Below, piece by piece: positions 5,995 to 29,854 of a stretch of DNA of 52,549 nucleotides. A program made the position numbers and the translations under genes. The stretch's first letter is position 1. The number at the start of each line of letters is the position of its first letter. The notes beneath the pieces are model-generated. The model did no database searches. It was given only the letters and a program-made list of their open reading frames with translations, and was not told where the DNA came from. Where the stretch lies: assembly GCA_035652295.1 (NCBI GenBank), contig DASREC010000428.1, positions 1-52,549 of the forward strand, read 5' to 3'. The stretch is from Polyangia bacterium (GTDB lineage Bacteria > Myxococcota_A > Polyangia > Palsa-1104).

Positions 5995-9255
<3,261 letters not shown>

Positions 9256-9259
9256 CCCC

Positions 9260-9276
9260 TGCGGCAAATTGCCGCA
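9260..9276. repeat. Copy 2 of palindrome TGCGGCAA-A-TTGCCGCA (in the 25-nt gap between convergent genes)
   Basis: ccTGCGGCAAATTGCCGCAag, between stop 9255 and stop 9281. Confidence 0.9.
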
Positions 9277-9280
9277 AGCG

Positions 9281-10663
<1,383 letters not shown>

Positions 10664-10760
10664 GAGACCTCCACCATTTCACGCCCGCCGCATCCATGAC
10701 AAGTCGATCGCCGCCGCCAATTGCAATCTCCGCCGCGCGCGGCTAGCGTGAGGAGGGGGA

Positions 10761-13700
10761 ATGGAGCCGAAGCGCGACGCGCCCGGCGAGCCCGCCTCGT
10801 CGAGCGCCGCGCCCGAGCCGCCGGCGACCGTCGAGGTGACCGGCTCGACCGAGGAGAAGCTCGACGCCGCGCCCGCCGTCCAGGCGCGCGACGGCGGACC
10901 GCTGTTCGCCGCCGGCGAGCGCGTCGCCGGGCGCTACCGCGTCACGCGGCGCATCGCCGCCGGCGGCATGGGCGAGGTCTACGAGGCGGAGGATCTCGAT
11001 CTCGGCGTGCGCGTGGCGCTCAAGACCATCCTCGCCGGCGGCGACGCGAGCGTGCACGCCGTCGAGCGCTTCAAGCGCGAGATCCAGCTGGCGCGCAAGG
11101 TCACGCACCCCAACGTGTGCCGCATCTTCGATCTCGGGCTGCACCTGCGCGAGCGCGCGTCGGGACAGCTCACGCCGCTCAACTTCTTGACCATGGAGCT
11201 GCTCGCCGGCGAAACGCTCGCGGCGCGCCTCGAGCGCGGGCCGCTCTCGGAGGCCGAGGCGCGGCCGCTGGTCGCGCAGCTCGCCGACGCGCTCGACGCC
11301 GCGCACGCCGCGGGCGTGGTGCACCGCGATCTCAAGAGCTCGAACGTGATGCTGGTGCCGGTGGACGGCGGCGCGCCGCGCGCGGTGATCACCGACTTTG
11401 GGATGGCACGCGACACGGCGGACGAGGGGGCGCGCATCACCGGGAACGGCGGCCTCGTGGGAACGCCGGCGTACATGGCGCCGGAGCAGATCGAGGGCGG
11501 GCCGATCGGGCCGGCGACCGACGTCTACGCGCTCGGCGTGCTGATCTTCGAGGCGGTCACCGGCGCGCTGCCGTTCTGCGGCAAAACGCCGCTCGAGACC
11601 GCGACCAGGCGGCTCAAGCAGGCGCCGCCGTCGCCGCGCGCGCTCGCGCCCGAGCTCGACGCGCGGTGGGAGGCGGCGATCCTGCGCGCGCTGGCGATCG
11701 ATCCCGCGCGGCGCTTCCCGTCGGCGGGCGCGCTGGCGCGGGCGCTCGACGAGGAACCGTCGGCCGGCGCGCCGCGCGGCCGCCGCCGCTGGCTGGCCGC
11801 GGCCGCGGTGCTGGCCGCGCTCGGGCTCGCCGGCGCGGCGGCGTATCGCGCGCGCCCGCGCAAGGTCGAGGCGCCGAGCGCGGGCGCGACCGCGGCGGCC
11901 GTGCCCGCGCCCGAGCGCCCGCCGGCGAAACCGCGCCGCGCCGTCGCCGTCCTCGGTTTCAAGGATCTCTCCGGCCGCGCCGAGACGCAGTGGCTCTCGA
12001 CGGCGCTCGCCGAGATGCTCGGCATGGAGCTCGGCGCCGGCGAGCAGCTGCGCATCATCTCCGGCGAGCGCGTCGATCGCGCGCGGCTCGCGCTCGGGCT
12101 CTCGGATCCGAGCGCGCTGGCGCCCGACACCCTGGCGCGCGTCGCGCGCACGCTCGGCGCCGACTACGTGGTGGTCGGCTCCTACGTCACGATCGGCGAC
12201 GGCGCCGACCGCGCGCTGCGTCTCGACGTGCGGCTCGAGGACGCGCGCGAGGGCGAGACCGCGCTGGCGCTCACCGAGCAAGGCCACGAGCGCGCGCTGT
12301 TCGACCTGGTCTCGTCGGCCGGCCGCCGCCTGCGCGGGCGCTTCGGCGCCGAGGTGGTGTCGGAGGCCGACACCGGCGCGCTGCGGGCCGCGCTGCCGTC
12401 GACGAGCGAGTCGGCCCGGCTGTACGCCGAGGGGCTGGTCAAGCTGCGCCGCTTCGACGCGCGGGCCGCGCGCGAGCTGCTCGCCGAGGCGGCCCGCCGC
12501 GATCCCGACAACGCGCTCATCCACGCCAGCCTGGCGCAGGCGGACTCGCAGCTCGGCTTCGAGGCGCGCGCCCGCGAGGAGTCGGAGCGCGCGTTCGCGC
12601 TCTCGCGCAAGCTGTCGCGCGAGGAGCGCCTGGTCGTCGAGGGCAACTACCTCGAGCTGCACCATCAATGGCAGCGCGCGCTCGGGCTGTACAAAGGACT
12701 GTTCGGATTTTTTCCCGACAACCTCGAGTACGGCGTGCGGCTCGGCTGGGCGCAGGTGCTCGGCGGCGCGGGCCAGGACGCGCGCGCGACGGTGGCGGAG
12801 CTGCGCAAGTTGCCGCACGCGCCCGACGTCGACGTGCAGCTCGATCTGATCGAGGCGGGCGCCGCCGAGACGCTCTCCGACTACAAGGCCGAGCTCGCCG
12901 CCGCCGAGCGCGCCGCCACCGACGCGCGCGCCGTCGACGCGACCATCGAGCTGGGACGCGCGCGCCGCGATCAGGCCTGGGCGCTGCTCCAGCTCGGGCA
13001 GCCCGACCGCGCGCTCGCCGCCGCCGAGGAGTGCCGCCGCATCTTCGCCGCCGCCAAGAACCCGTGGGGCGAGGCGTCGGCGCTCAACATGATGGGCAAC
13101 GCCGAGGAGGGCCGCGGCCGCCACGCCGCCGCCGAGCAGTCGTGGCGGCGATCGCTCGACATCGCGCACGAGGCCGGCGACCAGGACGGCGAAGCCGCCG
13201 CGCTCAACAACCTCGCCACGCTCTACACCAACTCGGGCGAGCTCGATCGCGCGCTGAAGATGTTCGACCAGGCGATGACCATCTCGCGCCGCACCGGCGA
13301 CGACGAGGGGCTGGCGTTCACGCTCTCCGACGTGGCCAACCTGTACGCCAAGCGCAACAACTACGGCGAGGACGAGCGCGCCGCCGCCCAGTCGATCGAG
13401 CTGTTCCACAAGATCGGCAACCAGACCGAGGCGGCGGTGGTGATGGGCAACCTCGCCGCCACGCGGCTGCAGCGCGGCGATCTCGCCGGCGCGCGCGCGC
13501 TGCGGGAGCAGGCGCTGGCGGTGTTCGAGCAGGCCGGCGCGAAGGCGCTCGAGGCGGCGCAGCGCTCGGGCCTCGCGCGCGTGCTGTGGGTCGCCGGCGA
13601 TCTCGACGGGGCGCGCCGCGAATACGGCCGCTCGCTCGCGCTGCGGCAGGCGATCGGCGACGAGGGCAAGCAGATGAGCACGCGGCTGGCGCTGGCGGCG

Positions 13701-14180
13701 ATCGACGTCGATCGCGGCGCGGTCGACGCCGCCGAGCCGGTGGTGCGCGCCGCGCTCGAGCGCGCCGTGAAGGAGAAGTCGGTCGACGACGAGGTCGAGG
13801 CGCGCGTCGAGCTGGCGCGCATCGCGCTCGCGCGCAAGCAGCTCGCCTCGGCCGACGCCGAGATCGCGCGCGCCGTCGAGCTGGCGAAGAAAGACGAGGA
13901 CGCGCGGCCGCGCCTCGACGCGGTGATCGTCGCGGCGCGGATTCATCTCGCCGCCGGCGACCGCGCGCAGGCGGCGCGCGAGCTCGACGCCACCATCGCC
14001 GAGGCGGCGCGCCTCGGCCTCGAGCCGCGCGCGATCGAGGCGCGCGAGCTGCGCGCGGAGGTCGAGCTGTCGTCGGGTGACGCCGCCGCCGCGCGCCGGC
14101 AGCTCGCCGCCGTCGAGAAACAGGCGCGCGCGCACGGCCTCGACGGGATCGCGCGCCGCGCCGCCGCCGTCCGCCCGTGA
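10761..14180 (+). CDS. Ser/Thr protein kinase with TM helix, periplasmic sensor-like and TPR domains
   Basis: [66 protein letters not shown]-like repeats ([47 protein letters not shown] etc). Strong RBS GAGGAGGGGGA before the ATG. Confidence 0.9.
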
Positions 14181-14196
14181 TAGAGTTGCGCGGCCC

Positions 14197-15522
14197 ATGA
14201 CCGTGAACGACGGCACCACGCACGACGCGCCCAGCGCGAGCGGCGAGCGCGCGCTGGTGCGGCGCTTTCAGCTGCGCGTCGTCGAAGGGCCGGACGCCGG
14301 CGCGGTGCACGTGTCGCGCGGCGAGCGGCTGGTGATCGGCACGCACGAGTCGGCCGACTTCCGCGTCAAGGACCGCACGGTGTCGCGCTTCCACTGCGAG
14401 CTCGAGCTCGTCGACGGGCGCGTGCAGGTGCGCGACCTCAACAGCCGCAACGGGACCGAGGTCGACCACGTCGCGGTGGCGCAGGCGTGGCTGCGCGGCG
14501 GCGCCACGCTCACGCTCGGGCAGACGCGCGTGCGCTTCGAGCTGGGCGACGGCCACGTCGAGATCCGCCTGTCGGAGCGCGAGCGCTTCGGCGTGATGGT
14601 GGGCCGCTCGCGGGCGATGCGCGCCGTGTTCGCCGTGCTCGAGCGCGCCGCCGGCTCCGACGCGACGGTGCTCATGGAGGGCGAGACCGGCTCGGGCAAG
14701 GAGGCGGCCGCCGAGTCGCTGCACCGCGAAAGCGCGCGCGCGCAGGGGCCGTTCGTGGTCGTCGACTGCGGCGCCATCCCGCGCGAGCTGCTCGAGAGCG
14801 AGCTGTTCGGCCACGAGCGCGGCGCCTTCACCGGCGCGGTCGGCGCGCGCGAGGGCGCGTTCGAAGCGGCCGCCGGCGGCACCATCTTTCTCGACGAGAT
14901 CGGCGAGCTGGCGGGCGATCTGCAGCCGAAGCTCCTGCGCGCGCTCGAGCGCCACGAGGTCAAGCGCGTCGGCGCCAACACCTACCGCCCCGTCGACGTG
15001 CGGGTGATCGCGGCGACCAACCGCAACCTGCGCGCCGAGGTGAACGCGCGCCGCTTCCGCTCCGATCTCTACTACCGGCTGGCGGTGATCGAGCTGCGCC
15101 TGCCGCCGATGCGCGAGCGCGGCGAAGATCTGCCGCTGCTCGTCGAGGATCTGCTGAGCGCGCTGGGCGCAGCCGACGATCCGGAAGCGGCGCGGCTGCG
15201 CACGCCCGAGCTGGCCGCCGAGCTGCGCCGGCACCACTGGCCGGGCAACGTCCGCGAGCTGCGCAACTACCTCGAGCGGTGCCTGGCCATGCGCGAGCCG
15301 ACGCCGCTCACCGCCGCGGGGCCGCTCGCGGTCGACGAGCTGGAGGTGAACGCGACGCAGCCGCTCAAGAGCGAGCGCGAGCGCTGGCTGCGCGTGCTCG
15401 AGCGCCGCTACCTCGACGAGATCCTGCGTAGCCACGAAGGCAACGTGACCGCCGCCGCGCGCTCCGCCGGCGTCGACCGCATTCACTTCTATCGACTGCT
15501 CTGGCGCCACGGCCTGCGCTGA
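14197..15522 (+). CDS. Sigma-54-dependent transcriptional activator with N-terminal FHA domain
   Basis: FHA ([24 protein letters not shown]...SRNGTEVD). [54 protein letters not shown] lies 17 nt after the kinase stop. Confidence 0.9.
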
Positions 15523-17693: not shown

Positions 17694-19409
17694 ATGTTCT
17701 CGCTTCGACGCGGCCTCGCGCTGGCCGCCGTCGTCGTGCTGTCGGCCGCGCGCTTCGTCGAGAGCGCCGCCGGCAACATCGATGACCTGTTCAGTCTGCT
17801 CGTCTACGTGCGGCACTTTGCCGCGAGCGGCTCGTTCTATTACAACGCCGCCGACGGCCCGATCGACGGCTTCACCAGCCCGCTCGATCTGCTGTTCAAA
17901 GCGGCGGCGCAGGTCGTGGTGCGCGGCGATCCGGTGCTGATCGCGTGGTGGCTCTCGCTGGCGCTGCACGTCGGCGTCGGCGTCGCCGGGTTCCTGATCG
18001 CCGAGCGGCTGGCGCGGCGGCGCGGGCTGCCCGGCCTGTGGCTCGCCACGATCGCCGGGATCGCGCTCGGCACCGCGCAGGCGCTCGGCGACGGCTCGGC
18101 GTTCCTGCTGGAGACGCCGCTGTTCGTGCTGCTCGGCCTGGCGGCGTGCGCGATCGTGGTGCTCGAGCCGCCGTCGAGCCGCGCCGGCCGGCTCGGCGTC
18201 GGCGCGCTGCTGATCGCGGTGACGCTGGCGCGGCCCGAGGGACTGCCGCTGTCGCTGCTGCTGCTCGCGCTCTTGTACTTCGAGCGGCGCGACGCGTGGC
18301 CGCTCGCGCTGTTCGCCGCCGGCATCGGCGCCTACTACGCGTGGCGCGTCCACGTCTTCGGCTTCTGGGCGCCGAACACCTATTACGCCAAGACGTCGGC
18401 GTCGCGCTGGTACGAGATCCGCGACGGCCTCGACTACGTGCTGGCGTTCGCGCGCTCGCTCGGCGCGCCGTCGCTGCTGTGGATCGCCGCGGCGCCGCTG
18501 GTCGCGGGCGCGCGGTTCGTCGCGCCGCCGCATCGCCGCGCGTACGTCGCGTGCTGCGCGCTCGCGTGGGCGATGCTCGGCGTGGTGGTGTACTCGGGCG
18601 GCGACTGCTACGCCGGCGGCCGCTTCCTCGCGCTGCCGCTCGCGCTCGCCACGCTGGCGCTGGTGATCGCGGCCGCCACGCTCGACGGCCGCGCCCGCAC
18701 CGCCGCGCGCGGCGCGCTCGCCGCCTTGACCGCCGCGCAGCTCCTCGTGCTGATCGCGACGCCGATCTACGTCTTCGGCGTGCTTCAGCCGCGCGAGCCG
18801 TTGCGCATTCCCCTGCGCGGCGATTCGTTCGCGTGCGAGCGCGACGCCTCCGAGCAGATCGCCGCCCCGCTGCGCCGCCGCCCCGGCGCGGTGGTCGCGC
18901 AGACCGACTTCCAGCGGTTCAAGTTCTTCGTCGACGATCTCGAGTCGCTCGATCTCACCGGCCTCAACGATCGTCGCATCGCCCACCGGCGCATCGACGG
19001 GCCGGTGCGCTGGGGCAAGCTCGACGTGGTCGAGGCCGCGCGCCTGCGCCCCGAGGTGTTGATCCTCGGCCACCACACGACGGTGAACGCGCGCGCGATC
19101 GCCGCGTTTCCGCTCGCCGAGGTGTTCCGCGACGCGGCGCTGCAAGACGACTTCTTCGGCTACGGCGTCTCGCCGGCGGCGGCCGAGGCGCTGACCGCGA
19201 GCTACGCGCCGGCGAGCGTGCCGGTGTGCGGCGGCTGGTTCAACTTCCTCGCGCGGCGCGACCTCGCCTCCGCGTGGCCGGCGCCGAGCGCGCGCGCCAC
19301 CACGACCGGCGGCGCAGTTGCGGCAAATTGCCGCAGAGAATACGCCGAGGCGCGATTCGGGAAAAACGTGGATTCGGAGAAAAGCGCGCGCATGATTTAC
19401 CGTCGGTGA
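17694..19409 (+). CDS. Polytopic integral membrane protein, possibly a GT-C-type glycosyltransferase
   Basis: About 10 or more hydrophobic segments over the first ~370 aa, then a soluble C-terminal domain. The product call is a weak guess based on architecture only. Confidence 0.6.
   Translation: MFSLRRGLALAAVVVLSAARFVESAAGNIDDLFSLLVYVRHFAASGSFYYNAADGPIDGFTSPLDLLFKAAAQVVVRGDPVLIAWWLSLALHVGVGVAGFLIAERLARRRGLPGLWLATIAGIALGTAQALGDGSAFLLETPLFVLLGLAACAIVVLEPPSSRAGRLGVGALLIAVTLARPEGLPLSLLLLALLYFERRDAWPLALFAAGIGAYYAWRVHVFGFWAPNTYYAKTSASRWYEIRDGLDYVLAFARSLGAPSLLWIAAAPLVAGARFVAPPHRRAYVACCALAWAMLGVVVYSGGDCYAGGRFLALPLALATLALVIAAATLDGRARTAARGALAALTAAQLLVLIATPIYVFGVLQPREPLRIPLRGDSFACERDASEQIAAPLRRRPGAVVAQTDFQRFKFFVDDLESLDLTGLNDRRIAHRRIDGPVRWGKLDVVEAARLRPEVLILGHHTTVNARAIAAFPLAEVFRDAALQDDFFGYGVSPAAAEALTASYAPASVPVCGGWFNFLARRDLASAWPAPSARATTTGGAVAANCRREYAEARFGKNVDSEKSARMIYRR
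19319..19335. repeat. Copy 4 of palindrome TGCGGCAA-A-TTGCCGCA (in the C-terminal tail codons of the membrane protein)
   Basis: gtTGCGGCAAATTGCCGCAga, read as A-A-N-C-R. Confidence 0.9.
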
Positions 19410-19424
19410 CGCGGCGGTTTTCTA

Positions 19425-19453
19425 TTGTGGCGTACGATATCGGTACCTATGAT
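19425..19453 (+). promoter_or_regulatory. Candidate sigma-70-type promoter of the DUF1987/kinase operon
   Basis: TTGTGG-N17-TATGAT; the -10 box ends 15 nt before ATG 19469. Confidence 0.3.
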
Positions 19454-19468: not shown

Positions 19469-19837
19469 ATGGAAAACCTGATATCCGGTGATCTGAAGAT
19501 CGAGCTGACGGCCGCGGATCCCGCGGCGCCCATCCAGATGATGTGGCGCGGCAAGAGCAACGATCGCACGCCCTCCAAGATCCTCGGCCCGTACTTCGCC
19601 ACCATCCTGGCGTCGGCGATCGAGCGGCGCGTGCCGGTGGAGCTGCACTTCGAGCGCATCGATCACTTCAACTCCTCGACCATCACGGCGGTGATCCAGC
19701 TGATCCAGGACGCGCGCACCGCCAACATCAAGCTGGTGCTGGTCTACGACAAGGCGCTCAAGTGGCAGAAGCTGAGCTTCGATGCGCTGCGCGTGTTCGT
19801 GCGCGACGATCAGCAGCTCGAGCTGCGCTCGGTCTGA
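19469..19837 (+). CDS. DUF1987 / SiaC-like partner-switch phosphoprotein (paralog 1)
   Basis: 122 aa. The pattern RGKSNDRTPSKILGPYF...VELHFERIDHFNSSTITAVIQLI...IKLVLVY matches the G-x-S-x-P...F-x-L-x-Y-x-N-[ST]-S-S layout of SiaC-type proteins. Confidence 0.7.
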   Translation: MENLISGDLKIELTAADPAAPIQMMWRGKSNDRTPSKILGPYFATILASAIERRVPVELHFERIDHFNSSTITAVIQLIQDARTANIKLVLVYDKALKWQKLSFDALRVFVRDDQQLELRSV

Positions 19838-19838
19838 G

Positions 19839-20327
19839 ATGGCCGACTTTCGCTTCTCGATCGATCTGCCGGTCACCAGCCGCTGGGAGAACGTCGACCT
19901 GCTGCGCACGTCGGTGCAGAGCTGTTTCACCGCCGTGTTCCAGGACGTCGACGGCTGCCACGCCATCGCCATGGTCACCGGCGAGCTGCTGGAGAACGCC
20001 GTCAAGTACGGCGCCTGGACGCTCACGCCGGGATCGTTTCGCCTGCGCGTCGAAGGCGGCGAGCGCGGCGCCACCATCACCGTCGAGAACCCGATCGTTC
20101 CCGACGATCCGAACGTCGCGGCGCTGATCGGCACGCTGCGCTGGATCGGCGGCTTCGCCAACGCCAGCGACGCCTATCGCGCCAAGCTGCTCGAGATCGC
20201 GTCGGCGCCGCGCGGCGGCAGCGCGAGCGGGCTCGGCCTGGTGCGCGTCGCCTACGAGGGCAACTGCACGCTCGACGCCGAGCTCGGCGAGCGCGCCGTG
20301 CGCGTCAAGGCCGTCCTGAGGCTGTGA
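19839..20327 (+). CDS. SiaB/RsbW-like GHKL-fold Ser/Thr kinase (paralog 1)
   Basis: N-box-like GELLENAVKYG; C-terminal SASGLGLVRVAYEG. ATG lies 1 nt after the stop of the upstream gene. Confidence 0.7.
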   Translation: MADFRFSIDLPVTSRWENVDLLRTSVQSCFTAVFQDVDGCHAIAMVTGELLENAVKYGAWTLTPGSFRLRVEGGERGATITVENPIVPDDPNVAALIGTLRWIGGFANASDAYRAKLLEIASAPRGGSASGLGLVRVAYEGNCTLDAELGERAVRVKAVLRL

Positions 20328-20821
20328 TGCGGCTGGCGCTCGAGCTGGTGGTGCCGCACGAGTGGGAGCGGATCGATCTGATCCGCGAGGCGGTGGGCCG
20401 CTGCGCGATGGCGGTGTTCGCCGACGAGGAGGCCAAGGACGCGCTCTCGATGGTGTGCTCCGAGCTGCTCGAGAACGCGATGAAGTACGGCTCGCCGGGC
20501 GCGGACGTGACGCTCTCGATCGGCGAGGACGCCGACGGGCTGGTGGTCACGGTGTCGAACGCCGTCGACGAAGCGTCGCGGCACGTGAGCGAGCTGCGCG
20601 AGCGCATCGAGTGGCTGCGCGGCTGCGCCGATCCCGCCGAGGCCTATACGCAGGCGCTGGCGAAGATCTACGCCCAGGGCAACGTCGATGAGAGCGGCCT
20701 CGGCATCGTGCGCATCGCCTACGAGGGCGGCTGCCGCATCGAGTGCGACACCTCGCAGCCGCGCCGCGTGATCGTGCACGCGCGCCGCCCGCGGCCGGCC
20801 GCCGCCGGAGCGCGCGCATGA
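20324..20821 (+). CDS. SiaB/RsbW-like GHKL-fold Ser/Thr kinase (paralog 2)
   Basis: SELLENAMKYG and DESGLGIVRIAYEGG, colinear with paralog 1. The start (GTG 20324 or ATG 20327) overlaps the upstream stop TGA 20325-20327. Confidence 0.7.
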   Translation: MMRLALELVVPHEWERIDLIREAVGRCAMAVFADEEAKDALSMVCSELLENAMKYGSPGADVTLSIGEDADGLVVTVSNAVDEASRHVSELRERIEWLRGCADPAEAYTQALAKIYAQGNVDESGLGIVRIAYEGGCRIECDTSQPRRVIVHARRPRPAAAGARA

Positions 20822-21213
20822 AGTTGCTGTTCGCGCCGATCGAGCGCGGCCCGCTGCGCGTGTTCGCGCGCGCGGGCAGCCACAACGTCGTGGCGTTCGA
20901 GGGCGTCCTGCGCGAGCAGGATCCGGCGGCGTGGCTGTGCCCGCTCATCGACACGATCCACGCGCGCGCCACCGATGAACACTTCAAGGAGGTGGTGCTC
21001 GATTTGCGCCGGCTCGAGTACGCCAACGCGGCGGCGTGGAAGTGCATCGTCTACTGGGTGCAGCTCCTCAAGGACGGCGGCGAGTCGTCCTATCACCTGC
21101 GCATCTACTCCGACGACAAGCACCGCTGGCAGCACATCGGCATGACGGCGCTGCGCGTGTTCGGTCAGAGCCGCCTGGAGATCACGGTGTATCGCGAAGG
21201 CCAACTGGCGTGA
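20818..21213 (+). CDS. DUF1987 / SiaC-like protein (paralog 2, hydroxyl-less acceptor motif)
   Basis: Colinear with paralog 1 (FEGVLREQDPAAWLCPLI...VLDLRRLEYANAAAWKCIVYWVQLL...ALRVF versus ...LHFERIDHFNSSTITAVIQLI...ALRVF). ATGA overlap with the upstream stop. The first 25 codons of ORF 20743 were rejected. Confidence 0.6.
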   Translation: MKLLFAPIERGPLRVFARAGSHNVVAFEGVLREQDPAAWLCPLIDTIHARATDEHFKEVVLDLRRLEYANAAAWKCIVYWVQLLKDGGESSYHLRIYSDDKHRWQHIGMTALRVFGQSRLEITVYREGQLA

Positions 21214-22561
21214 AGCGCAGCGCCAGGACGGTGATGTCGTCGTCCTGCGCCACCATCCACGCGCGCACCTCGCCGAGCACATGATCGCGGATCCGCTCGG
21301 GCGTCTCGTCTTTCACTTTCTCGACGGCGGCGCTCAGCCGATCGATGCCGAACTGCTCGCCGGCCGCGTTCATCGCCTCGGTGATGCCGTCGGTGTACAG
21401 CACCACCAAGTCGCCGTCGGCCACGCGCAGCTCGGTGTCGATGGTGACGTGGGCGATGTCGCGATCGGCGCCGAGCCAGGTCCCCGGCGTCTCGATGCAC
21501 TCGACGCGGCCGGTGCGCTTCGGGCAGAAGAGCACGTCCTGGTGCGCGCCGGCGAACAGCAGCCGCCCGTCGGCGAAGTAGCGCAAGAGCGACAGCGTGA
21601 CGTAGTCGCCGTGCTCCATGCGGTTGCGGATGTTGTCGACCATGACGTCGTTGAGCACGCGCAGCACGTCGCGCGGCGTGGCGTCGGGGCGCGAGTGCGT
21701 CGCCGCAGCCATCGCGCTCTGCACCATCAACATCACCAGGCCGGCGCTCAGGCCGTGGCCCGAGACGTCGCCGATCGCCAGCCAGCCGCCGTCGCGCAGC
21801 GCCATGACGTCGTAGTAGTCGCCGCCGACCTCGCTCGCCGGGATCATCGACGCCGCGATCGCGACGCCGGGCACGCGCAGATCCTTGGGCAGGAGCGACG
21901 TCTGCACGCGGCGCGCGATGGCGATCTCCTCTTCGATCTTCGCCGTGCGCACCGCCTCGTTGAGCAGCACCTCCTGCGCGCGCTTGCTCTCGGTGATATC
22001 GAACGCCACGCCTTGCAGGAACTGCGGGCGCCCCAGCTCGTCCTTGACCAGCCGCGCTTCGCCGTGCACCCAGACGACGTGGCCGTCCTTGGCGAGGAAG
22101 CGGCACTCGGCGCGGAACGGCCCGCCGGTCTGCACGCCGCGCGTGAACTCTTCGTTCCACATCACGCGGTCGGCGGGGTGGAGCCGCCAGTACCAGAGGA
22201 ACGGATCGGCCAGCCACTCCTCCTGCGTGTAGCCGAGGATGCTCTCGATGTGCGGGCTGATGTAGATCTCGTTCTCGCCCTCGCCGAGCACCGCCATGAA
22301 GGTGACCGCGGGGATCTGCTCGACCAGCGTACGGAAGCGCGCCTCGGCTTTGCGCAGCCGCGCCTCGGCGCTCGACGCGTCGTCGCGCGCGGCGCCGCCC
22401 GAGCGTTCGCTCCAGGTGACGCGCCCGCGATCGGCGTCGCCGGCGGGGAACAGGCCGCGCGCCAATCGATCGAGCGTGGAGAACGCCTCGGCGGTCATCT
22501 TGTCGAAGTCGAGGAGCTGCGCCGCCAGCGCCGCCTCGTCGTTCGCCTCCGGCTCGCTCAC
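21182..22561 (-). CDS. PAS-domain PP2C/SpoIIE-family Ser/Thr phosphatase
   Basis: PAS (FRTLVEQIPAVTFMA...YISPHIESILGYTQEEWL...WVHGEARLV). PP2C (ARRVQTSLLP, SEVGGDYYDV, AIGDVSGHGLSAGLVM, YTDGITEA, DDITVLALR). GTG 22561 overlaps the hypB stop (GTGA). The upstream 261 codons of ORF 21182..23344 are a shadow of hypB. Confidence 0.85.
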   Translation of the reverse strand: MSEPEANDEAALAAQLLDFDKMTAEAFSTLDRLARGLFPAGDADRGRVTWSERSGGAARDDASSAEARLRKAEARFRTLVEQIPAVTFMAVLGEGENEIYISPHIESILGYTQEEWLADPFLWYWRLHPADRVMWNEEFTRGVQTGGPFRAECRFLAKDGHVVWVHGEARLVKDELGRPQFLQGVAFDITESKRAQEVLLNEAVRTAKIEEEIAIARRVQTSLLPKDLRVPGVAIAASMIPASEVGGDYYDVMALRDGGWLAIGDVSGHGLSAGLVMLMVQSAMAAATHSRPDATPRDVLRVLNDVMVDNIRNRMEHGDYVTLSLLRYFADGRLLFAGAHQDVLFCPKRTGRVECIETPGTWLGADRDIAHVTIDTELRVADGDLVVLYTDGITEAMNAAGEQFGIDRLSAAVEKVKDETPERIRDHVLGEVRAWMVAQDDDITVLALRFTPVGLRDTP

Positions 22562-23337
22562 GCGCGCACCTCCACCTCGCGCGCCGCGCGCGCCGTCTTG
22601 AGCCAGTCGTACCAGCCGTCGAGCCCGTCGCCGCGCGTCGCCGAGAGCCGCAGCACGCCCAGCCGCGGATTGACCGCGCGCGCGTGCGCGACGCAGCGCT
22701 CGACGTCGAACTGCACGTACGGCAGCAGATCGATCTTGTTGACGATCATCAGCTCGGCGGCGCGAAACATGTGCGGGTACTTGATCGGCTTGTCGTCGCC
22801 CTCGGTGACCGAGACGGTGACCACCTTGGCGTGCTCGCCGAGCGGGAACAGCGCGGGGCATACCAGGTTGCCGACGTTCTCGATCAAGCACAGCGCGCCG
22901 CGCGGCGGCTCCAGCTCGACGAGCGCGCGCGCCACCATCTCCGCGTCGAGGTGGCAGCCGGTGCCGGTGTTGATCTGCACCGCGCGCGCGCCGGCGGCGC
23001 GGATGCGCGCGGCGTCGTTCTCGGTCGCCTGATCGCCCTCGACGACGTAGATCGCGAGGTCGCGCCCGAGATCGCGGATGGTGCGCTCGAGCAGCGAGGT
23101 CTTGCCCGCGCCCGGCGAGCTGACGAGATCGAGCGCCAAGATGCTGCGCTCGTCGAACCACGCGCGGTTGCGCTCGGCGCGGCGGCGGTTCTTCTCCAGC
23201 ACCTTCTGCTCGAGCCTCACCGTCACGCCCTCGAGCCGCACGCGCGGATGATCGTGATGATGATGATCGTGATCGTGGTGGTGCTGCTCGCCGTCGTGAT
23301 CGTGGCTGGTCTCGGAGCAGCCGCAGGTGGCGCACAT
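22558..23337 (-). CDS. hypB: Hydrogenase nickel-incorporation GTPase HypB
   Basis: MCATCGCSE start, His-rich HDHDGEQHHHDHDHHHHDH, P-loop GSPGAGKTSLL, ENVGNLVCP, NKIDL. The ATG shares one nt with the hypA stop. Confidence 0.9.
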   Translation of the reverse strand: MCATCGCSETSHDHDGEQHHHDHDHHHHDHPRVRLEGVTVRLEQKVLEKNRRRAERNRAWFDERSILALDLVSSPGAGKTSLLERTIRDLGRDLAIYVVEGDQATENDAARIRAAGARAVQINTGTGCHLDAEMVARALVELEPPRGALCLIENVGNLVCPALFPLGEHAKVVTVSVTEGDDKPIKYPHMFRAAELMIVNKIDLLPYVQFDVERCVAHARAVNPRLGVLRLSATRGDGLDGWYDWLKTARAAREVEVRA

Positions 23338-23666
23338 CAGACAACCTCCATCTCTTTGATCCGGAGCTCTTCGCCGGCGAGCCATTCGAGATCGGTGCCG
23401 CCGCACGCGCAGCGCCCGAACGGACGATCGAGCGCCAGCTCGGCGCCGCACGCGCGGCAGCGCGCCCGCCCCGGCGTCTCGATGATGTCGAGCCGCGCGC
23501 CCTCGGCGAGCGTGCCCTCCGCCGCCAGCTCGAAGCAGAAGCGCACCGCGTCGGGCAGCACCGCGGTGAGCCGGCCGATCTCCAGCACCACGCGCGTCAC
23601 GCGCGCGCCGCGCGACGACTCGCACACGCGCTCGATCACGTCCGCGACGATCCCCAGCTCATGCAT
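23337..23666 (-). CDS. hypA: Hydrogenase maturation nickel metallochaperone HypA
   Basis: MHELGIV start; two Cys pairs CRAC...CACG; 109 aa. Confidence 0.9.
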   Translation of the reverse strand: MHELGIVADVIERVCESSRGARVTRVVLEIGRLTAVLPDAVRFCFELAAEGTLAEGARLDIIETPGRARCRACGAELALDRPFGRCACGGTDLEWLAGEELRIKEMEVV

Positions 23667-24141
23667 GGCGCGCCTCGGCCACCAGCTTCTCCACCAGCGC
23701 GATCGCCGGATCGATAGCCGCCTCGACCGCGGGGCTCAGTCCCATGAGCGGCTCGTCGCCGTCGCCGAGGCACGCCGGCTCGCAGCCGACGACGCGCAGC
23801 CGCTCGAGCGCGCCGCCCATCGAGCGCACCACCGCCAGCACGCGCATCGGATCCATGCCGTGGGTCTCGACGATCGCCGCCGCGCCGGCGTCGGCGAGCG
23901 CGGGCTCGATCACGTAGAGCGTGCCGGGCGCGCCACCGCGCGCGGTGGCGTCGACGAGGATGGCCGCGTCCCACGGCTCGAGCAGCGCGTAGGTGAGATC
24001 GAAGCCGCGGATCCCGAAGTCGACCACGCGCACGTCGTCGCCGATCGGCCGGCGCTGGAGGCGCTGCGCCACCTCGACGCCGAAGCCGTCGTCGCCGAGC
24101 AGCACGTTGCCGATGCCGGCCACCAGGATGCGCGCCGTCAT
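23659..24141 (-). CDS. [NiFe]-hydrogenase maturation endopeptidase (HupD/HyaD family)
   Basis: ILVAGIGNVLLGDDGFGVEVAQRL and ILVDA...HG motifs. ATGA overlap with the upstream stop; 8-nt overlap with the hypA start. Confidence 0.85.
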   Translation of the reverse strand: MTARILVAGIGNVLLGDDGFGVEVAQRLQRRPIGDDVRVVDFGIRGFDLTYALLEPWDAAILVDATARGGAPGTLYVIEPALADAGAAAIVETHGMDPMRVLAVVRSMGGALERLRVVGCEPACLGDGDEPLMGLSPAVEAAIDPAIALVEKLVAEARHA

Positions 24142-25301
24142 GCGAGCGGCTCCACCTCGTCGGGGCGGAAGAAGAAGCGGTGGCCCGGCTGCCCGCGCGC
24201 GCCGAGATCCTTGCCCGGATCGTCGTCGATGGTGACCGCGACGAAGACGCGATCTTCGTAGTCCTGCTCCACCGACTCGATGGTCGCGGTCATTCCGGCG
24301 AGCGCGAGATCGAAGATGTCGGCGCGTCCGCTCGGCCGGAGCCGCACGCGATCGCCGGGGCCGAGCGCCACGCCGCGCGCCAGCACGCGCTCGGGCTTGG
24401 GCGCCTCCAGCTTGCGCAGCGCGCCGTGCAGCCGGGTCAGCTCCGCCTCGCCGAGCGCCTCGGTGCGGGCGAGCAGCGCGGCGCCGCGCGGATCGCCGGC
24501 GCGCAGCTCGCGCTTCTCGTCGTCCGAGAGCGTGAGGATGCGCAGCGTGAGGATCTCGTCGATCTCGGTGCCGTCGAAGAGATCGCCCGGGCTCTCGGGC
24601 GCCACGCGCGGGTGATCGTAGAGGATGATCGGCGACGAGAGCATGGTGTCGCGGCGCGCCTCGTCGCCGACCAGCACCGGCCAGGTTCCCACGTTGCGGC
24701 AAGTTGCCGCAGCGGCGGCGAGCGCGTCCGGCGGCTCGAGCAGCGAGACCAGCTCGCCCGCGCGCACGCCGACCAGCGTGTGCGCCGACGCGAACGATCG
24801 CAGCAGCGCCTCGTCGCGGCCGCCGCCGGCGAACGCCGTGACGTTGTCGACCGCGACGCTCACGCGGTAGAGCGCCTCGTCGAGCCGCTCGGCCGCGAGC
24901 GTGATGCGCCCTTCGATCGCCTCCTGCCGCGCGCCCGGCTCGGACGGCGACGACGACGGCGCGGCCGCGGGAAACGCGAACCGCACCTCGCGCGCCCGCC
25001 CGATCAGCTCGGCGAGCGCCACCTCGGGCACCGCCACCGTCCGCTCGACCGCCGCCTGCCAGCCGTCGCGCTCGACGAGGTGGAGGAAGCGCACCTCCGC
25101 CTCGAACACCGCGCCCGCGCCGCGCGCCAGGCACTCGGTGCGCATCGACGACGGATCGGCGCCGCCGCAAAAGCCCGGCGGATAGAGCACCGCGAAGCTC
25201 CAGCGCTGCCGGTTCTTCACCGACGACGCGCGATAGGGATACAAGAGGTACCCCTCATAGAGCAGCGCCTGCGCGATTCGTTCGGCCGCCGCGCGGTTCA
25301 T
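24138..25301 (-). CDS. Conserved hypothetical protein of the hydrogenase operon (387 aa)
   Basis: Protein-like composition with both ends translationally coupled (ATGA overlaps). I believe similar proteins accompany group 1h hydrogenase loci, but I cannot verify this. Confidence 0.75.
   Translation of the reverse strand: MNRAAAERIAQALLYEGYLLYPYRASSVKNRQRWSFAVLYPPGFCGGADPSSMRTECLARGAGAVFEAEVRFLHLVERDGWQAAVERTVAVPEVALAELIGRAREVRFAFPAAAPSSSPSEPGARQEAIEGRITLAAERLDEALYRVSVAVDNVTAFAGGGRDEALLRSFASAHTLVGVRAGELVSLLEPPDALAAAAATCRNVGTWPVLVGDEARRDTMLSSPIILYDHPRVAPESPGDLFDGTEIDEILTLRILTLSDDEKRELRAGDPRGAALLARTEALGEAELTRLHGALRKLEAPKPERVLARGVALGPGDRVRLRPSGRADIFDLALAGMTATIESVEQDYEDRVFVAVTIDDDPGKDLGARGQPGHRFFFRPDEVEPLA
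24695..24711. repeat. Copy 5 of the palindrome, central-base variant TGCGGCAA-G-TTGCCGCA
   Basis: gtTGCGGCAAGTTGCCGCAgc inside CDS 24138..25301, read on the minus strand as A-A-T-C-R. Confidence 0.85.
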
Positions 25302-25942
25302 CGCGTCTCCCCGGCGCGTTCGAGCAGCCGCTCGACGGTCTGCTCCCAGGTCGGCAGTCCGAGCCGCACTTTGTGTCCATAGAGACGTTCAAAGACGTCT
25401 TTGCGCAACGGCACGAACAAGCTGTTTGGATAGTAGAGATCCATGGTGTCCTTCCAGACGCGCACGGGAAGTCGATAGTGGGTCTCTTTGCTCCACGGAA
25501 TCTGCGCCACCTGGAGCGTGTCGTCGGCGCCGGCGTAGAACACCGTTCCACTGAACAGCAGCGTCAGCGGGATCTCGCCCTCGCGCAGCGCGTGAAACAA
25601 CTTGGTGGTGGCGAGATTGAAGTCATAGCCGCACGGTAAAGCCACATCCACCGTCACGTGGTCCGTGAACGCGGGGATCGTCACGGTGCTTTGTGTCCAC
25701 AGTACCGTGCGCAGCGTCTGTCCCCAGCGCTCCGGCGCGCCGAAGAGATCGCGCAGGCCGGCCTGCTCTTCATCACTATAGTGTCGATTGGGCGCGTCGA
25801 TCTGCACCTGACAGCGCAAGACCACCGCTTGAATGCTCTCGCCGGCGGGCGCGTTCGCGACGCGCAGCTCGAGCGCGAGCTGCGGGGACGCGGCGAAGCG
25901 CACTGTCTTGGCGCCCTCGACGGTGAAGCTCAGGTCGGGCAC
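25298..25942 (-). CDS. Hydrogenase-associated conserved hypothetical (DUF6084-like)
   Basis: GTG 25942 start (VPDLSFTVEGAK...) overlaps the upstream gene by 13 nt. Markedly lower GC (47% in 25381-25440). The family name is from memory. Confidence 0.7.
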   Translation of the reverse strand: MPDLSFTVEGAKTVRFAASPQLALELRVANAPAGESIQAVVLRCQVQIDAPNRHYSDEEQAGLRDLFGAPERWGQTLRTVLWTQSTVTIPAFTDHVTVDVALPCGYDFNLATTKLFHALREGEIPLTLLFSGTVFYAGADDTLQVAQIPWSKETHYRLPVRVWKDTMDLYYPNSLFVPLRKDVFERLYGHKVRLGLPTWEQTVERLLERAGETR

Positions 25943-26550
25943 GCCGCGCCTCCGTCGAGCTCGGCGAAGAAGCGGTCGAGGTGCGTCCAGACCTCCGCGC
26001 CGCCGCCGAGGCCGCGCCAGTGCAGCTTGATCAACCCGACCACGCGATAGCACTCGTCGATCGACACGCGATAGTGGCGTTCGGCGCCGCGCGCGCGATC
26101 GACCAGCAGCGCCTCGACGTCGGGCTCGAGCGACGCCAGCACCGGGTTCGCGGCCACCAGCTCGGCCCACGCTTGAGGCGGCAGCCATGCCTCGGCCGCG
26201 CCGGCGGGGCTGGGATAGAACGCCACCACGCGGCCGGCGGCGCTCGAATGGGTGAAGAACGCCAGGCGGATCGGAATCGCCAGCGCGTTCCACTGCGCGT
26301 CGTCGAGCACGAAGCCGTGGAGCCGCTCGACGCGCCGCCGCACGCGCCGCCACTTCGCCTGGCCGGCGAACAGGATCGCGCACGCGCCGCACGCGCACTC
26401 GAGCTGCCGCGCCGCGGGATCGATCAGGTGCTCGTGCGCCGGCGGAACCGCGGCGCCGCACAGCCCGCACACTTCCACGTCGCGCGGCCGCGGCCGGGCA
26501 AAACGCCGCAGCGCCGACAGCGCCGACGTGCTCTCGCGCGGCTCGCTCAT
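25930..26550 (-). CDS. Hydrogenase-associated conserved hypothetical with 4-Cys motif (DUF5947-like)
   Basis: VCGLCG...LECACGAC motif; ATGA overlap with the upstream stop. The family name is from memory. Confidence 0.7.
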   Translation of the reverse strand: MSEPRESTSALSALRRFARPRPRDVEVCGLCGAAVPPAHEHLIDPAARQLECACGACAILFAGQAKWRRVRRRVERLHGFVLDDAQWNALAIPIRLAFFTHSSAAGRVVAFYPSPAGAAEAWLPPQAWAELVAANPVLASLEPDVEALLVDRARGAERHYRVSIDECYRVVGLIKLHWRGLGGGAEVWTHLDRFFAELDGGAACPT

Positions 26551-27053
26551 CGCGGCGCGCTCGCGCGCAGGCGCTCGGCCGAGACCAGCGCGGCCGGGGC
26601 GCCGCCTTCGAGCTCGATGGCCGCGGCGTCGGGCGCGGCCTCGACGAGCGCCGCCTCGACCGAGGTCCGGAGCGCCGCCGATGCCACGCGCACGCGCACC
26701 ACGCCGTCGGCGATCCCGATCAGCTCGACGTCACCCGGCGCCGCGCGCAGCTCGTCGAGCGCCGCGCGCACGCGCGCCTCGAGCCCGAGCGGGTGCAGGC
26801 CGTGCAGCAGCAGCAGGCTCGCCACCAGCGGATCGGCCGCGCACCCGTCGAGGATCGCCCGCTCGATCGGCTCGCCGCGCGTGGCGACGACGGCGAACAG
26901 CCGCTCCAGCCCCGCCGCGTGCAGGTCGAGCACCGCGCGCACGATCGCCCGCGTCTTGTCGCGCGCCGCCGCGTCGCCCAGCCGCTCGACCTCGCCCACC
27001 AGCGTCTCGAGCTCGCGCAGCCGCCGCCCCACCTCGCCGTCGGCCGCGCTCAT
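26547..27053 (-). CDS. Hydrogenase-associated helical protein (NifU-C-terminal-like, no CxxC)
   Basis: ATG 27053 overlaps the large-subunit stop (ATGA). Contains VRAVLDLHAAGLERL and LLLLHGLHP motifs. Function not established. Confidence 0.65.
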   Translation of the reverse strand: MSAADGEVGRRLRELETLVGEVERLGDAAARDKTRAIVRAVLDLHAAGLERLFAVVATRGEPIERAILDGCAADPLVASLLLLHGLHPLGLEARVRAALDELRAAPGDVELIGIADGVVRVRVASAALRTSVEAALVEAAPDAAAIELEGGAPAALVSAERLRASAPR

Positions 27054-28822
27054 TTGACCTGCGCTCCGAAGCCGGGCGAGTGGCGCACCTCCAGCTCCTT
27101 GCCGTCGCCGAGGTACATGTGCACGCCGCACGGCAGGCAGGGATCGAAGCTGCGCACCGCGCGCATGATGTCGATGCCTTTGAAGTTGTCCGGCCCGTTC
27201 TCCTCGAAGATGGGCGTGTTCTGCACCGCGTCCTCATACGGGCCCGGCGTTCCGTACGAGTCGCGCGGGCTGGCGTTCCACGGCGTCGGCGGGTACGGGT
27301 GATAATTGGCGATCTTGCCTTCGCGAATGACCACGTGGTGCGACAGCACGCCGCGCACCGCCTCGTGAAAGCCGCAGCCGATCGCCTCGTCGGGGACCTT
27401 GAAGTCGGTCCACGTCTGCGTGTGGCCGGCGTGCAGCTCGGCGAGCGCCTTCTCGACGAAGTGCAGCGCGGTCGCCGCCGCGTACGCCTGGAAATAGGTG
27501 CGCGCGCGATTGCGCTCGAGCGCATTGGACCACTTCGGGATCTTCCACTCGTACTCGGCTTCCGGTTTCAGTGCGGTCTTTGGCAGGTTGATCTTGACGC
27601 TCTGACCAGTGGCTTTGACGTAACCAATGTCCACTAAACCGGCGAGCGCAGTGGTCCATAGACGCGCGATGGGCCCGCCGCCGGTGTCGAGCGCCAGGTG
27701 ATCGCCGGTGCGCTTGTCGAGCCAGCGCGGCGACATGACCCACGTGTACTTCGAGTTCAAATCCCGCTTCTGTGGCTTTGGCACCGTCGTTTGATTCCAC
27801 GGATGCCGCTGATCGACCGGATTGCCGAGCGGATCTTTCTTTACGAAGGTCTCGCCCGCCTGCCAATCGTCATAGAACGAGCTGCCGAGCAGGATGCGGA
27901 TCCCGAGGTTGATGTCGACGAGGTCGGTGGTGACCAACTCTCCGTCGACGACGATGCCGGGCGTGACGAACATGTCGCGCCCCCATTTGCTCATCGTCTC
28001 GTATTTGAAATCGCAGGTCTCCGGGTTTTGAAACGCGCCCCAACAACCCAATAGAACCCGCCGGCGCCCGACGTTCTCGTAACCGGGTAAAGCCTCATAA
28101 AAGAAATCGAACAAGTCGTCATGAAGCGGCACGACCTTCTTCATGAACTCGACGTACTTCATCAGTCTCACTAGATAGTCTGTAAACAACTGCACTGTGG
28201 CCACCGTCCCCACGCCGCCCGGATACAGCGTCGACGGATGGACGTGGCGGCCCTCCATGAGACAGAACATCTCGCGCGTCATGCGGCTCATCTGGAGCGC
28301 TTCGCGATAGAACTCACCCGTGAATGGATTGAGCGACCGCATGATGTCGGCAATCGTTCGATAGCCGTGCTCGGCGGCGTGCGGCGCACTCGTCGTCTCG
28401 GCTTTGGCGAACACGCTGGGATTGGTCTCTTTGACCATCGTCTCGCAGTAGTCGACGCCGACGAGATTGTCCTGAAAGATGTTGTGGTCGAACATGTACT
28501 CGGCCGCTTCGCCGAGGTTGACGATCCATTCGGCCATGTGCGGCGGTTTGACGCCAAAGGCCATGTTCTGCGCATAGACCGCGCAGGTGGCGTGATTGTC
28601 GCCGCAGATGCCGCAGATGCGGCTGGTGATGAAGTGCGCGTCGCGCGGATCCTTGCCCTTCATGAAGATGCTGAACCCGCGAAAGATCGACGACGTCGAG
28701 CGGCACTCGGCCACTTGTCGATTGGCGAAGTCGATCTTGGTGTGAATGCCGAGACTGCCGACGATCCGCGTGATCGGGTCCCAGGACATGTCGACGAGCT
28801 TCTTATCCGCGTCTGTGGACAT
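27050..28822 (-). CDS. hhyL: [NiFe]-hydrogenase large subunit, group 1h/5 (high-affinity type)
   Basis: L1 motif TSRICGICGDNHA and L2 motif SFDPCLPCGVHM, followed by a 22-aa C-terminal extension for proteolytic maturation. AAGGAG RBS before ATG 28822. Confidence 0.92.
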   Translation of the reverse strand: MSTDADKKLVDMSWDPITRIVGSLGIHTKIDFANRQVAECRSTSSIFRGFSIFMKGKDPRDAHFITSRICGICGDNHATCAVYAQNMAFGVKPPHMAEWIVNLGEAAEYMFDHNIFQDNLVGVDYCETMVKETNPSVFAKAETTSAPHAAEHGYRTIADIMRSLNPFTGEFYREALQMSRMTREMFCLMEGRHVHPSTLYPGGVGTVATVQLFTDYLVRLMKYVEFMKKVVPLHDDLFDFFYEALPGYENVGRRRVLLGCWGAFQNPETCDFKYETMSKWGRDMFVTPGIVVDGELVTTDLVDINLGIRILLGSSFYDDWQAGETFVKKDPLGNPVDQRHPWNQTTVPKPQKRDLNSKYTWVMSPRWLDKRTGDHLALDTGGGPIARLWTTALAGLVDIGYVKATGQSVKINLPKTALKPEAEYEWKIPKWSNALERNRARTYFQAYAAATALHFVEKALAELHAGHTQTWTDFKVPDEAIGCGFHEAVRGVLSHHVVIREGKIANYHPYPPTPWNASPRDSYGTPGPYEDAVQNTPIFEENGPDNFKGIDIMRAVRSFDPCLPCGVHMYLGDGKELEVRHSPGFGAQVK

Positions 28823-28833
28823 CGAGTCGCTCC

Positions 28834-29844: not shown

Positions 29845-29854
29845 CAAAGGCCTC

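Follow-up and report, generated by a model that had tools for sequence, protein, structure and literature searches.

The 52,549-bp contig analysed here (the window) comes from an uncultured Polyangia bacterium (Myxococcota), a soil myxobacterium, and contains four tightly packed genes transcribed in the same direction: C1 and C2, coding for small SiaC/STAS-fold proteins, and B1 and B2, coding for GHKL kinase-like proteins. This C1-B1-B2-C2 cassette converges on a gene for a PAS-PP2C phosphatase, which is the terminal cistron of a [NiFe]-hydrogenase operon (Table 1). The five genes together form what is probably a partner-switching module. The initial annotation of this DNA had described the mirror-symmetric C-B-B'-C' cassette and its overlap with the phosphatase gene; the coordinates were found to be exact and independent gene calls agreed with them.

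Table 1. Features of the window (positions counted from its first nucleotide) and fusion proteins found among relatives
Feature	Position	Strand	Remarks
Cassette C1-B1-B2-C2	19469-21213	+	four genes
C1	19469-19837	+	122 aa
B1	19839-20327	+	162 aa; 1-nt gap after C1
B2	20327 (ATG start) or 20324 (GTG start) to 20821	+	164/165 aa; overlaps B1 by 1 or 4 nt
C2	20818-21213	+	131 aa; ATGA overlap with B2
PAS-PP2C phosphatase gene	22561-21182	-	459 aa; GTG start
Overlap of the convergent C2 and PP2C reading frames at their 3' ends	21182-21213	both	32 nt
Group 1h [NiFe]-hydrogenase and hyp operon	22558-35199	-	Pfam matches
Promoter-like hexamers TTGTGG-17 nt-TATGAT	19425-19453	+	found by eye; 15 nt upstream of the C1 start
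Terminator-like hairpin	19399-19418		closes the gene upstream of the cassette
138-nt gap upstream of hypF, with inverted repeat TGCGACA-aca-TGTCGCA	35200-35337	-	perfect 7-bp repeat, directly upstream of a TTGACT hexamer
Two Ser/Thr kinase and two FHA-domain sigma-54 activator genes	5317-15522		kinases 1312 and 1139 aa, with TPR regions; activators 460 and 481 aa
Phage tail lysozyme domain gene	37419-38114		Phage_lysozyme2, E = 5e-31
PP2C-C fusion proteins			P0237, P0265, P0268, P0270, P0284, P0286, P0288, P0292, P0294, P0306

The identical five genes have been predicted independently on two other assemblies covering the same locus. C1 is 100% identical to the NCBI entry 'hypothetical protein VFF06_24750 [Polyangia bacterium]', and the phosphatase is HZS40076.1, 'SpoIIE family protein phosphatase'; homologues of the cassette proteins are labelled 'hypothetical protein', 'ATP-binding protein' or similar in their sources. 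High-GC DNA yields many long spurious open reading frames (ORFs), dozens of which are listed in the cassette region, and the B2 and PP2C frames failed both of the filters applied to GC content at third codon positions (GC3). The small ORFs might on these grounds be taken for chance frames of a high-GC genome, a reading to which we give practically no credence. C1, B1, and C2 passed the strict third-position filter, with GC3 values of 0.86-0.92 and low GC at second positions, and hundreds of homologues share their motifs; these homologies and the confident AlphaFold2 models described below refuted the chance-frame reading. The B2 and PP2C frames were accepted because of the independent gene calls and their homology.

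Judged from its sequence, the product of the convergent gene is a soluble PAS-PP2C serine/threonine phosphatase. Its SpoIIE (PF07228; 122.5 bits, E = 2.6e-35) and PAS_3 (69.6 bits, E = 2.8e-19) domains reached the gathering scores, the PP2C motifs GGDYYD (246-251), GDVSGHG (264-270), YTDG (389-392), and DDD (440-442), which we take to be metal-binding, are intact, and none of its 19-residue windows has transmembrane-like hydropathy. This bears out the earlier description of a cytoplasmic PAS phosphatase instead of a membrane type. Its relatives among PDB sequences were the Rv1364c phosphatase (3KE6) and SiaA-PP2C (6K4E); the sequence did not match the SiaA model. Paralogues of about 610 aa, 58-62% identical to the window phosphatase, end in a C-family domain (profile E-values 3e-11 to 2e-18) that carries an F-M-S-S-S motif, so that enzyme and substrate form one chain (Table 1). 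Another fusion protein, P0430, joins B and C.

Family profiles compared with solved structures gave only weak STAS, SiaC, and histidine-kinase matches, and sequence searches of B2 and C2 against solved structures returned nothing useful, so fold comparison was required. The AlphaFold2 model of C1, built on the family alignment, had a mean predicted local distance difference test (pLDDT) value of 90.7, and its top eight PDB fold matches were all SiaC structures (6KKO, 7E6G, 6K4F, 6KKP), with E-values of 2e-5 to 3e-4 and template modelling (TM) scores of 0.57-0.69 against 6KKO_C/D, 7E6G, and 6K4F. RsbV, SpoIIAA, and other anti-sigma antagonists followed. By sequence, C1 had no match to PF09345 (SiaC, DUF1987; cut-off 24.5 bits) and reached 15.5 bits (E = 0.015) on PF01740 (STAS; cut-off 22.6 bits), and C2 reached 15.1 bits (E = 0.019) on PF09345, all below cut-off. 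The best curated model for both proteins was slr1659_superfam (NF047705), with 24.4 bits (E = 2.7e-5) for C1 and 26.1 bits (E = 8.2e-6) for C2, under the cut-off of 100 bits that applies to this NCBIfam model and to its companion slr1658_superfam (NF047703). The relatives tested from other phyla were likewise under the cut-offs of these two models.

C1 contains the motif Asn68-Ser69-Ser70-Thr71, with Asn68 present in 130 of the 131 C1-type sequences from related loci and Ser69 in all 131; in the model, helix 69-84 begins at Ser69. The family profile matched the STAS protein TM1442 at an E-value of 0.025 only, and aligned Asn68-Ser69 of C1 with its Asp-Ser, which we take to be the STAS phospho-serine site. 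In SiaC, the residue at the N-terminal end of helix alpha2, Thr68 (N67-T68-S69), is phosphorylated by SiaB and dephosphorylated by SiaA (PMC8457831, PMC7647112, PMC7278518). C1 combines the SiaC/STAS fold with a phosphorylatable Ser after a conserved Asn at the start of alpha2, and is predicted to be the phospho-substrate of the module, with Ser69 as acceptor.

C2 is 29% identical to C1 (E = 3e-9), the homology from which its fold was deduced, and does not share this acceptor: Ala71 takes the place of the Ser (motif Y-A-N-A-A), and Ala was found in 21/21 C2-type sequences. The invariant Ala therefore argues for a non-phosphorylatable paralogue, and C2 could not be upheld as the second substrate proposed in the initial annotation. 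Only 214 relatives of C2 were found among 1.84 billion representative proteins; of the 30 best-matching representative clusters, 24 have Ala at the acceptor position, and most clusters further away have Ser there. This distribution marks C2 as a rare, derived branch, predicted to be non-phosphorylatable. A SiaC variant engineered to carry both T68A and S69A was still able to restore biofilm formation (PMC8457831). C2 also contains Cys76 ('WKC', two residues past a conserved Trp), which occurs in 8 of the 21 C2-type sequences, those nearest the window, and is not invariant. This residue is worth attention in view of RsfA of Mycobacterium tuberculosis, which we take to be a redox-regulated, non-phosphorylated antagonist.

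B1 and B2 are 36% identical (E = 4e-29). At this level, and at that of C1 and C2, the duplication of kinase and substrate noted earlier holds in so far as the genes are paralogues, but these must be old and not recent copies. The AlphaFold2 model of B2, likewise obtained from the family alignment (pLDDT 93.3), gave its best fold E-values with SpoIIAB, UsfX/RsbW, and RsbW (8e-6 to 1e-4), and its best query-normalised TM scores with SiaB (6KKO_A/B; 0.66-0.68 over about 160 columns). B2 was barely at the cut-offs of PF13581 (HATPase_c_2; 27.5 bits against 27.4) and DUF6272 (26.7 bits), a family of which no mention was found in the literature searched, and B1 stayed under the HATPase_c_2 cut-off (17.6 bits, E = 0.004). 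On the SiaB family protein kinase model NF038262 (cut-off 85 bits), B2 reached 20.1 bits and B1 had no match. The best curated model was slr1658_superfam, with 57.7 bits for B2 and 30.3 bits (E = 2.6e-7) for B1, both below its cut-off. The DUF1987 (SiaC-like) and kinase labels of the initial annotation thus stand at the level of the fold (C1 as SiaC/STAS, B2 as SpoIIAB/RsbW/SiaB), but not by the cut-offs of the SiaB, SiaC, and DUF1987 hidden Markov models. The module proteins had no match among the PADLOC defence-system models, and a defence-system reading of the cassette was dropped on this result.

Across 47 diverse B-family sequences, the N-box ELLEN51AxKYG, with Glu47 and Asn51, and the G2-like SGLGIVRIAYEG are invariant; the G2-like SGLG is conserved in the family. 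The B family is without the DxGxG G1 box: Asn or Ser replaces the Asp (Asn79 in B2) and the glycines are absent. The B2 model also has two extra helices, at residues 86-118, presumably where the ATP lid of GHKL kinases would lie. Because the G1 box is missing, kinase activity of the B proteins is not assured, and they might instead be pure binding proteins (anti-sigma or anti-adaptor pseudokinases), with a Hanks-type Ser/Thr kinase phosphorylating Ser69 of C1. Myxobacteria carry many Hanks-type Ser/Thr kinases; the window has two Pkinase genes, 5-14 kb upstream, and others are met repeatedly in the vicinity of related loci. Those of the window are, however, not kept in its closest relatives, and in Desulfobacterota, Spirochaetota, and other phyla no kinase-like gene other than B accompanies C and PP2C. 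Invariance of Glu47, Asn51, and the G2-like GLG would moreover be unexpected for a pseudokinase, and SiaB, which gave the best query-normalised fold overlap with B2, is a proven kinase, called 'unusual' (PMC7278518, PMC7647112). An exclusively binding role of B1 and B2 seems to us distinctly improbable. From the invariant acceptor Ser, the constant company of PP2C, and the lack of any other kinase-like gene travelling along, we infer that B1 and/or B2 phosphorylate C1.

B, C, and PP2C homologues were mapped on each of 161 related loci gathered from genomes and metagenomes. Seventy loci have at least 5 kb of sequence to either side of B; 66 of these have a C gene no more than 500 bp from B, and 60 have a PP2C domain no more than 5 kb away. 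The gene-neighbourhood survey called for at the outset thus found B, C, and PP2C linked across about 160 loci, bringing together the generic components of a partner switch (PP2C, GHKL kinase, and STAS-like substrate in one locus). Gene orders differed between groups. Desulfobacterota, Spirochaetota, Fidelibacterota, and some Gammaproteobacteria have B-C, then a methyltransferase-like gene, then a membrane PP2C; another large group has PP2C-B-C; and Myxococcota have C1-B1 with a convergent PP2C, C1-B2, or C1-B2-C2. The nearest relatives of B1 occur in C1-B1 pairs followed by a convergent PP2C, and the window cassette looks like such a module with a B2-C2 pair inserted.

Two further features of these loci were recorded. 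In 45 of them (L025-L082 and others; Desulfobacterota, Spirochaetota/Leptospiraceae, Fidelibacterota, and some Gammaproteobacteria), B and C are accompanied by a conserved gene of about 475 aa, mostly between C and a multi-pass membrane PP2C (e.g., L079:9965-13739) and in a few cases after the PP2C (L059, L065, L081). The C-terminal half of its product is a class-I S-adenosylmethionine-dependent methyltransferase domain (Methyltransf_25, E = 1.4e-7), with no NCBIfam match, and the four genes together seem to form an operon of a kind not described before. A gene for a receiver-domain protein follows B1 in several C1-B1 loci that face a convergent PAS-PP2C, at the place held by B2-C2 in the window (L067:10484-11152; L057:9332-10231); L057 is also adjoined by a sigma-54 activator gene. 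The accessory partners of the module may vary from lineage to lineage.

The operon that ends in the phosphatase gene has the order hypF, hypD, hypE, small subunit, large subunit, accessory genes, DUF6084, a 387-aa gene, hycI, hypA, and hypB. The PP2C GTG start overlaps the hypB stop by 4 nt (GTGA), in agreement with the earlier statement that the phosphatase is last in a hydrogenase operon. The large subunit matched the actinobacterial-type enzyme of R. eutropha (5AA5; group 1h/5) at 1174 bits and all other hydrogenase structures at no more than 162 bits, which assigns the window hydrogenase to group 1h (formerly group 5) of the [NiFe] enzymes; DUF6084 is among the accessory genes of the window, and relatives have both DUF5947 and DUF6084. 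GC content falls to 0.62-0.63 at 28001-30000, 38001-40000, and 42001-44000, against about 0.72 elsewhere. The first of these dips covers the hydrogenase structural genes, which are far more conserved with respect to the relative L167 (84-85%) than are their neighbours (53-67%).

A first metagenome scan with B2 alone as the query found nothing, and an alignment-based second scan, together with a genome scan, retrieved only distant relatives (at most 56% identity), none with hydrogenase genes. The hydrogenase link might thus have been unique to the window, an idea that was overturned by exact-protein look-ups of the contigs encoding the nearest B2 (61-77% identical) and phosphatase (65-81%) homologues. 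The relatives were read as stretches of about 20 kb or less. The whole arrangement, hyp and structural genes with hycI-hypA-hypB-PAS-PP2C after them, facing a convergent C2-B2-B1-C1, was found on the P0006, P0007, and P0195 contigs and in L167 (a 1.5-Mb contig), with the same 4-nt hypB/PP2C overlap and a C2/PP2C overlap of 29-32 nt; L167 and the P0195 contig also repeat the gene order of the hydrogenase operon. The P0003 contig has a slightly rearranged version of the hyp/hhy-PP2C and C2-B2-B1-C1 arrangement. Conserved linkage to PP2C and hydrogenase genes in relatives, which had been set beforehand as a test of the proposal, was therefore present in 5/5 closer relatives whose contigs reach far enough. 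L165, L166, and the P0002 contig each have the cassette and, next to it, a convergent gene broken by the contig end, the fragment being PP2C in L165 and L166 and an unassigned piece of 43 aa on the P0002 contig. Between the window and L167, the one relative from which these values come, identity was 53-56% for the cassette proteins, 67% for the phosphatase, 66% for HypB, and 84-85% for the hydrogenase subunits. On its outer side, the cassette has different neighbours in each genome.

The five genes, their folds and invariant residues, the family-wide linkage of B, C, and PP2C, the fusions, and the synteny with the hyp/hhy operon are the observed basis of our interpretation. We consider it probable that the locus encodes a partner-switching (serine-phosphorylation) module of the RsbU/V/W, SpoIIE/AA/AB, and SiaA/B/C type, belonging to an uncharacterised branch of these proteins and recruited to a group 1h [NiFe]-hydrogenase operon in one Polyangia lineage. 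Several observations besides the missing G1 box count against it. None of the 161 more distant family loci carries hydrogenase or hyp genes, so the tie to the hydrogenase must be lineage-specific. L168 has a hhy operon with a terminal PAS-PP2C (65% identical) and no cassette in the remaining 1.1 kb. In L010, a Polyangiaceae contig that starts inside a B1-B2-C2 run, no PP2C lies downstream, the cassette being followed by a 270-aa gene and a gene for a 612-aa membrane protein (L010:68-4093); the mirror cassette can thus occur without a convergent phosphatase. All the relatives are metagenomic contigs, four of them from one sample. Finally, the conserved block encodes no sigma factor, DNA-binding protein or transcription factor, or enzyme as an output partner, and for this reason the output step is conjecture.

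The switch could also be genuine and its link to the hydrogenase merely positional, and what it controls could be something unrelated, for example a general stress sigma factor or development. That the wider family never adjoins hydrogenase genes fits such a reading, as does the presence of response regulators, sigma-54 activators, or unrelated genes beside close PAS-PP2C and C1-B1 modules; no hydrogenase-specific output is visible either. Yet the 4-nt hypB/PP2C overlap and the convergent cassette are retained in five or six genomes at about 55% cassette identity while the other flank turns over completely, and co-transcription would by itself tie phosphatase dosage to hydrogenase expression. 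We give a purely positional link a small but real chance.

The cassette appears to have its own sigma-70-like (housekeeping-type) promoter. Hexamers of like spacing to those in Table 1 lie upstream of C1 in three relatives (L166, TTGCTG-18-CATACT; L165, TTGTCG-17-TATCAT; L167, TTGTCA-18-CAAGAT). A consensus promoter scan made no call at the window site, where the -35 hexamer matches at 3/6 positions only, and a search for sigma-54 promoters gave matches rarer than chance. At the opposite end of the cassette, a C2/PP2C 3' overlap of 29-50 nt is retained in 8/9 relatives: 32 nt in L167 and the P0007 contig, 29 nt in the P0195, P0006, and P0002 contigs, 38 nt in L166, and 50 nt in L165; on the P0003 contig the two genes are separated by a 6-nt gap. 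With such an overlap, a terminator cannot fit between the two transcription units, and the hydrogenase operon and the cassette might interfere with each other in transcription or pair as antisense RNAs. Folding of the overlap as an RNA structure or bidirectional terminator was no better than that of shuffled sequences (z = -0.51). Upstream of hypF, the perfect inverted repeat listed in Table 1 is accompanied by a third TGCGAC copy about 35 nt further downstream, inside the same gap. The repeat could be an operator at the hydrogenase operon promoter, a candidate known from the window alone.

None of the window's ORFs contains a GG[DE]EF motif, which agrees with the earlier remark that a diguanylate cyclase gene is lacking, and a GGDEF gene lies within 10 kb in only 14/165 related loci; a linked diguanylate cyclase is therefore not the output. 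A SiaABCD-type system could nonetheless act on a cyclase encoded elsewhere, with unphosphorylated C1 or C2 activating an unlinked GGDEF enzyme. Myxobacteria encode many GGDEF proteins, and the best fold match of C1 is SiaC. These same locus counts, however, and the scores of C1 and C2 under the SiaC cut-off and of B under the SiaB cut-off, tell against it, and we regard this version as highly improbable.

Other genes of the window were considered as well. The Ser/Thr kinases and FHA/sigma-54 activators upstream (Table 1) are not kept beside the cassette in relatives. The 571-aa membrane protein encoded upstream was tried as a conserved partner and rejected, as it has no similarity to the products of same-position genes in L166 or L010. 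The phage tail lysozyme domain gene lies in a lower-GC stretch among ORFs without Pfam matches, and may be left over from a prophage or tailocin, or belong to a secretion system.

A working mechanism for the favoured partner switch can be outlined. The PAS-PP2C would be translated as the last, coupled cistron of the hydrogenase operon, and by this coupling to hypB its amount would follow hydrogenase expression; the PAS domain probably makes its activity depend on a cue from the cytoplasm. Given the apparent promoter of the cassette, kinase and substrate would be made independently of the phosphatase. B1 and/or B2 would phosphorylate Ser69 of C1, and the phosphatase would remove this phosphate. 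With kinase and substrates already present, C1 would lose its phosphate once the phosphatase is made, and in this unphosphorylated form it would bind the B kinases and/or a target, as do RsbV, SpoIIAA, and SiaC. The non-phosphorylatable C2 may be a permanent pseudo-substrate clamping B2, or a partner freed by B2 when C1 competes. The output would not be cyclic di-GMP synthesis by a linked enzyme. Most likely, though conjecturally, the switch either feeds back on expression of the hydrogenase operon, by way of an unlinked sigma factor or regulator that B holds, or couples H2 scavenging to a starvation or persistence programme. As the phosphatase gene lies inside the operon, control of the operon by the switch would make a positive feedback loop. 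We see a slim chance that the module is an asymmetric two-input switch, in which B1 and B2 form a heterodimer, C1 docks only when the operon is on and the PAS domain senses the right redox or energy state, and C1 then displaces C2; free C2, in a sigma-factor-like role, would then turn on a target, for instance a dormancy programme or the promoter machinery of the hydrogenase operon itself. If so, the circuit would be self-reinforcing and could commit cells to persistence fuelled by atmospheric H2.

Group 1h [NiFe]-hydrogenases let soil bacteria persist by consuming atmospheric H2 (PMC7784904). Partner-switching systems, the SiaABC system, and the NCBI slr1658/slr1659 superfamily models are already known. 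The literature searched contained no link of group 1h hydrogenases to PP2C, SpoIIE, or an anti-sigma partner switch, no partner switch tied to a [NiFe]-hydrogenase operon, no C-B-B'-C' cassette, and no Ala-type SiaC-like clade. The hydrogenase-linked form is restricted to one uncultured lineage, and what we say beyond gene anatomy and synteny is inference. Kept with the operon across divergent genomes, the module is a specific regulatory candidate and a first concrete lead on how group 1h hydrogenases might be regulated. To sigma factors and diguanylate cyclases it would add a further kind of partner-switch coupling; it also sets apart a clade of SiaC-like proteins that are non-phosphorylatable by nature, and it gives a functional context to proteins labelled 'hypothetical' or 'ATP-binding' and to Pfam DUF6272.

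Among known systems, the module resembles SiaA/SiaB/SiaC of Pseudomonas aeruginosa in combining a PP2C, a small dimeric GHKL-type kinase, and a SiaC-fold substrate of about 125 aa. The acceptor stands at the start of helix alpha2 in both, as N-T68-S in SiaC and N-S69-S in C1 (PMC8457831, PMC7647112). It differs in having no linked SiaD/GGDEF output, in a soluble PAS phosphatase where SiaA is predicted to be membrane-bound (PMC7278518), and in two kinase-like B proteins and a second, non-phosphorylatable C protein. The window genes are convergent and tied to a hydrogenase operon, whereas the Sia genes form one operon, and the window sequences score under the SiaC (PF09345), SiaB_fam_kinase, and SiaA models.

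The three-part logic and the folds are also those of RsbP/RsbU-RsbV-RsbW (sigma-B) and SpoIIE-SpoIIAA-SpoIIAB (sigma-F) of Bacillus. RsbP of B. subtilis, which we take to be a PAS-PP2C conveying energy stress to sigma-B, has the same domain plan as the window phosphatase. Unlike in the Bacillus switches, no sigma factor gene is linked, C1 scores below the STAS cut-off, and the B proteins have two extra helices and no G1 box. The UsfX-RsfB complex of M. tuberculosis (8IH8) was among the top fold matches of both B2 and C1, and the phosphatase domain of Rv1364c is a sequence relative of the window PP2C. UsfX presumably has one phosphorylation-regulated antagonist (RsfB) and one that is non-phosphorylated and redox-regulated (RsfA), which would make it the nearest precedent for the pairing of C1 (Ser) with C2 (Ala). 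In contrast to UsfX/RsfA/RsfB/Rv1364c, the window has no linked sigF, C2 is without an invariant cysteine pair, and the protein families differ.

The best-scoring curated models, far as the scores are below their 100-bit cut-offs, were those named after Slr1658 (for B1 and B2) and Slr1659 (for C1 and C2) of Synechocystis, a pair for which we know of no hydrogenase link. Loss of slr1658 led to poorer recovery from iron limitation and to de-repression of a pgr5-like gene, according to the passage of PMC7555055 that cites Zer et al. (2018). This phenotype suggests that the Slr1658/Slr1659 system is also tied to redox and energy balance.

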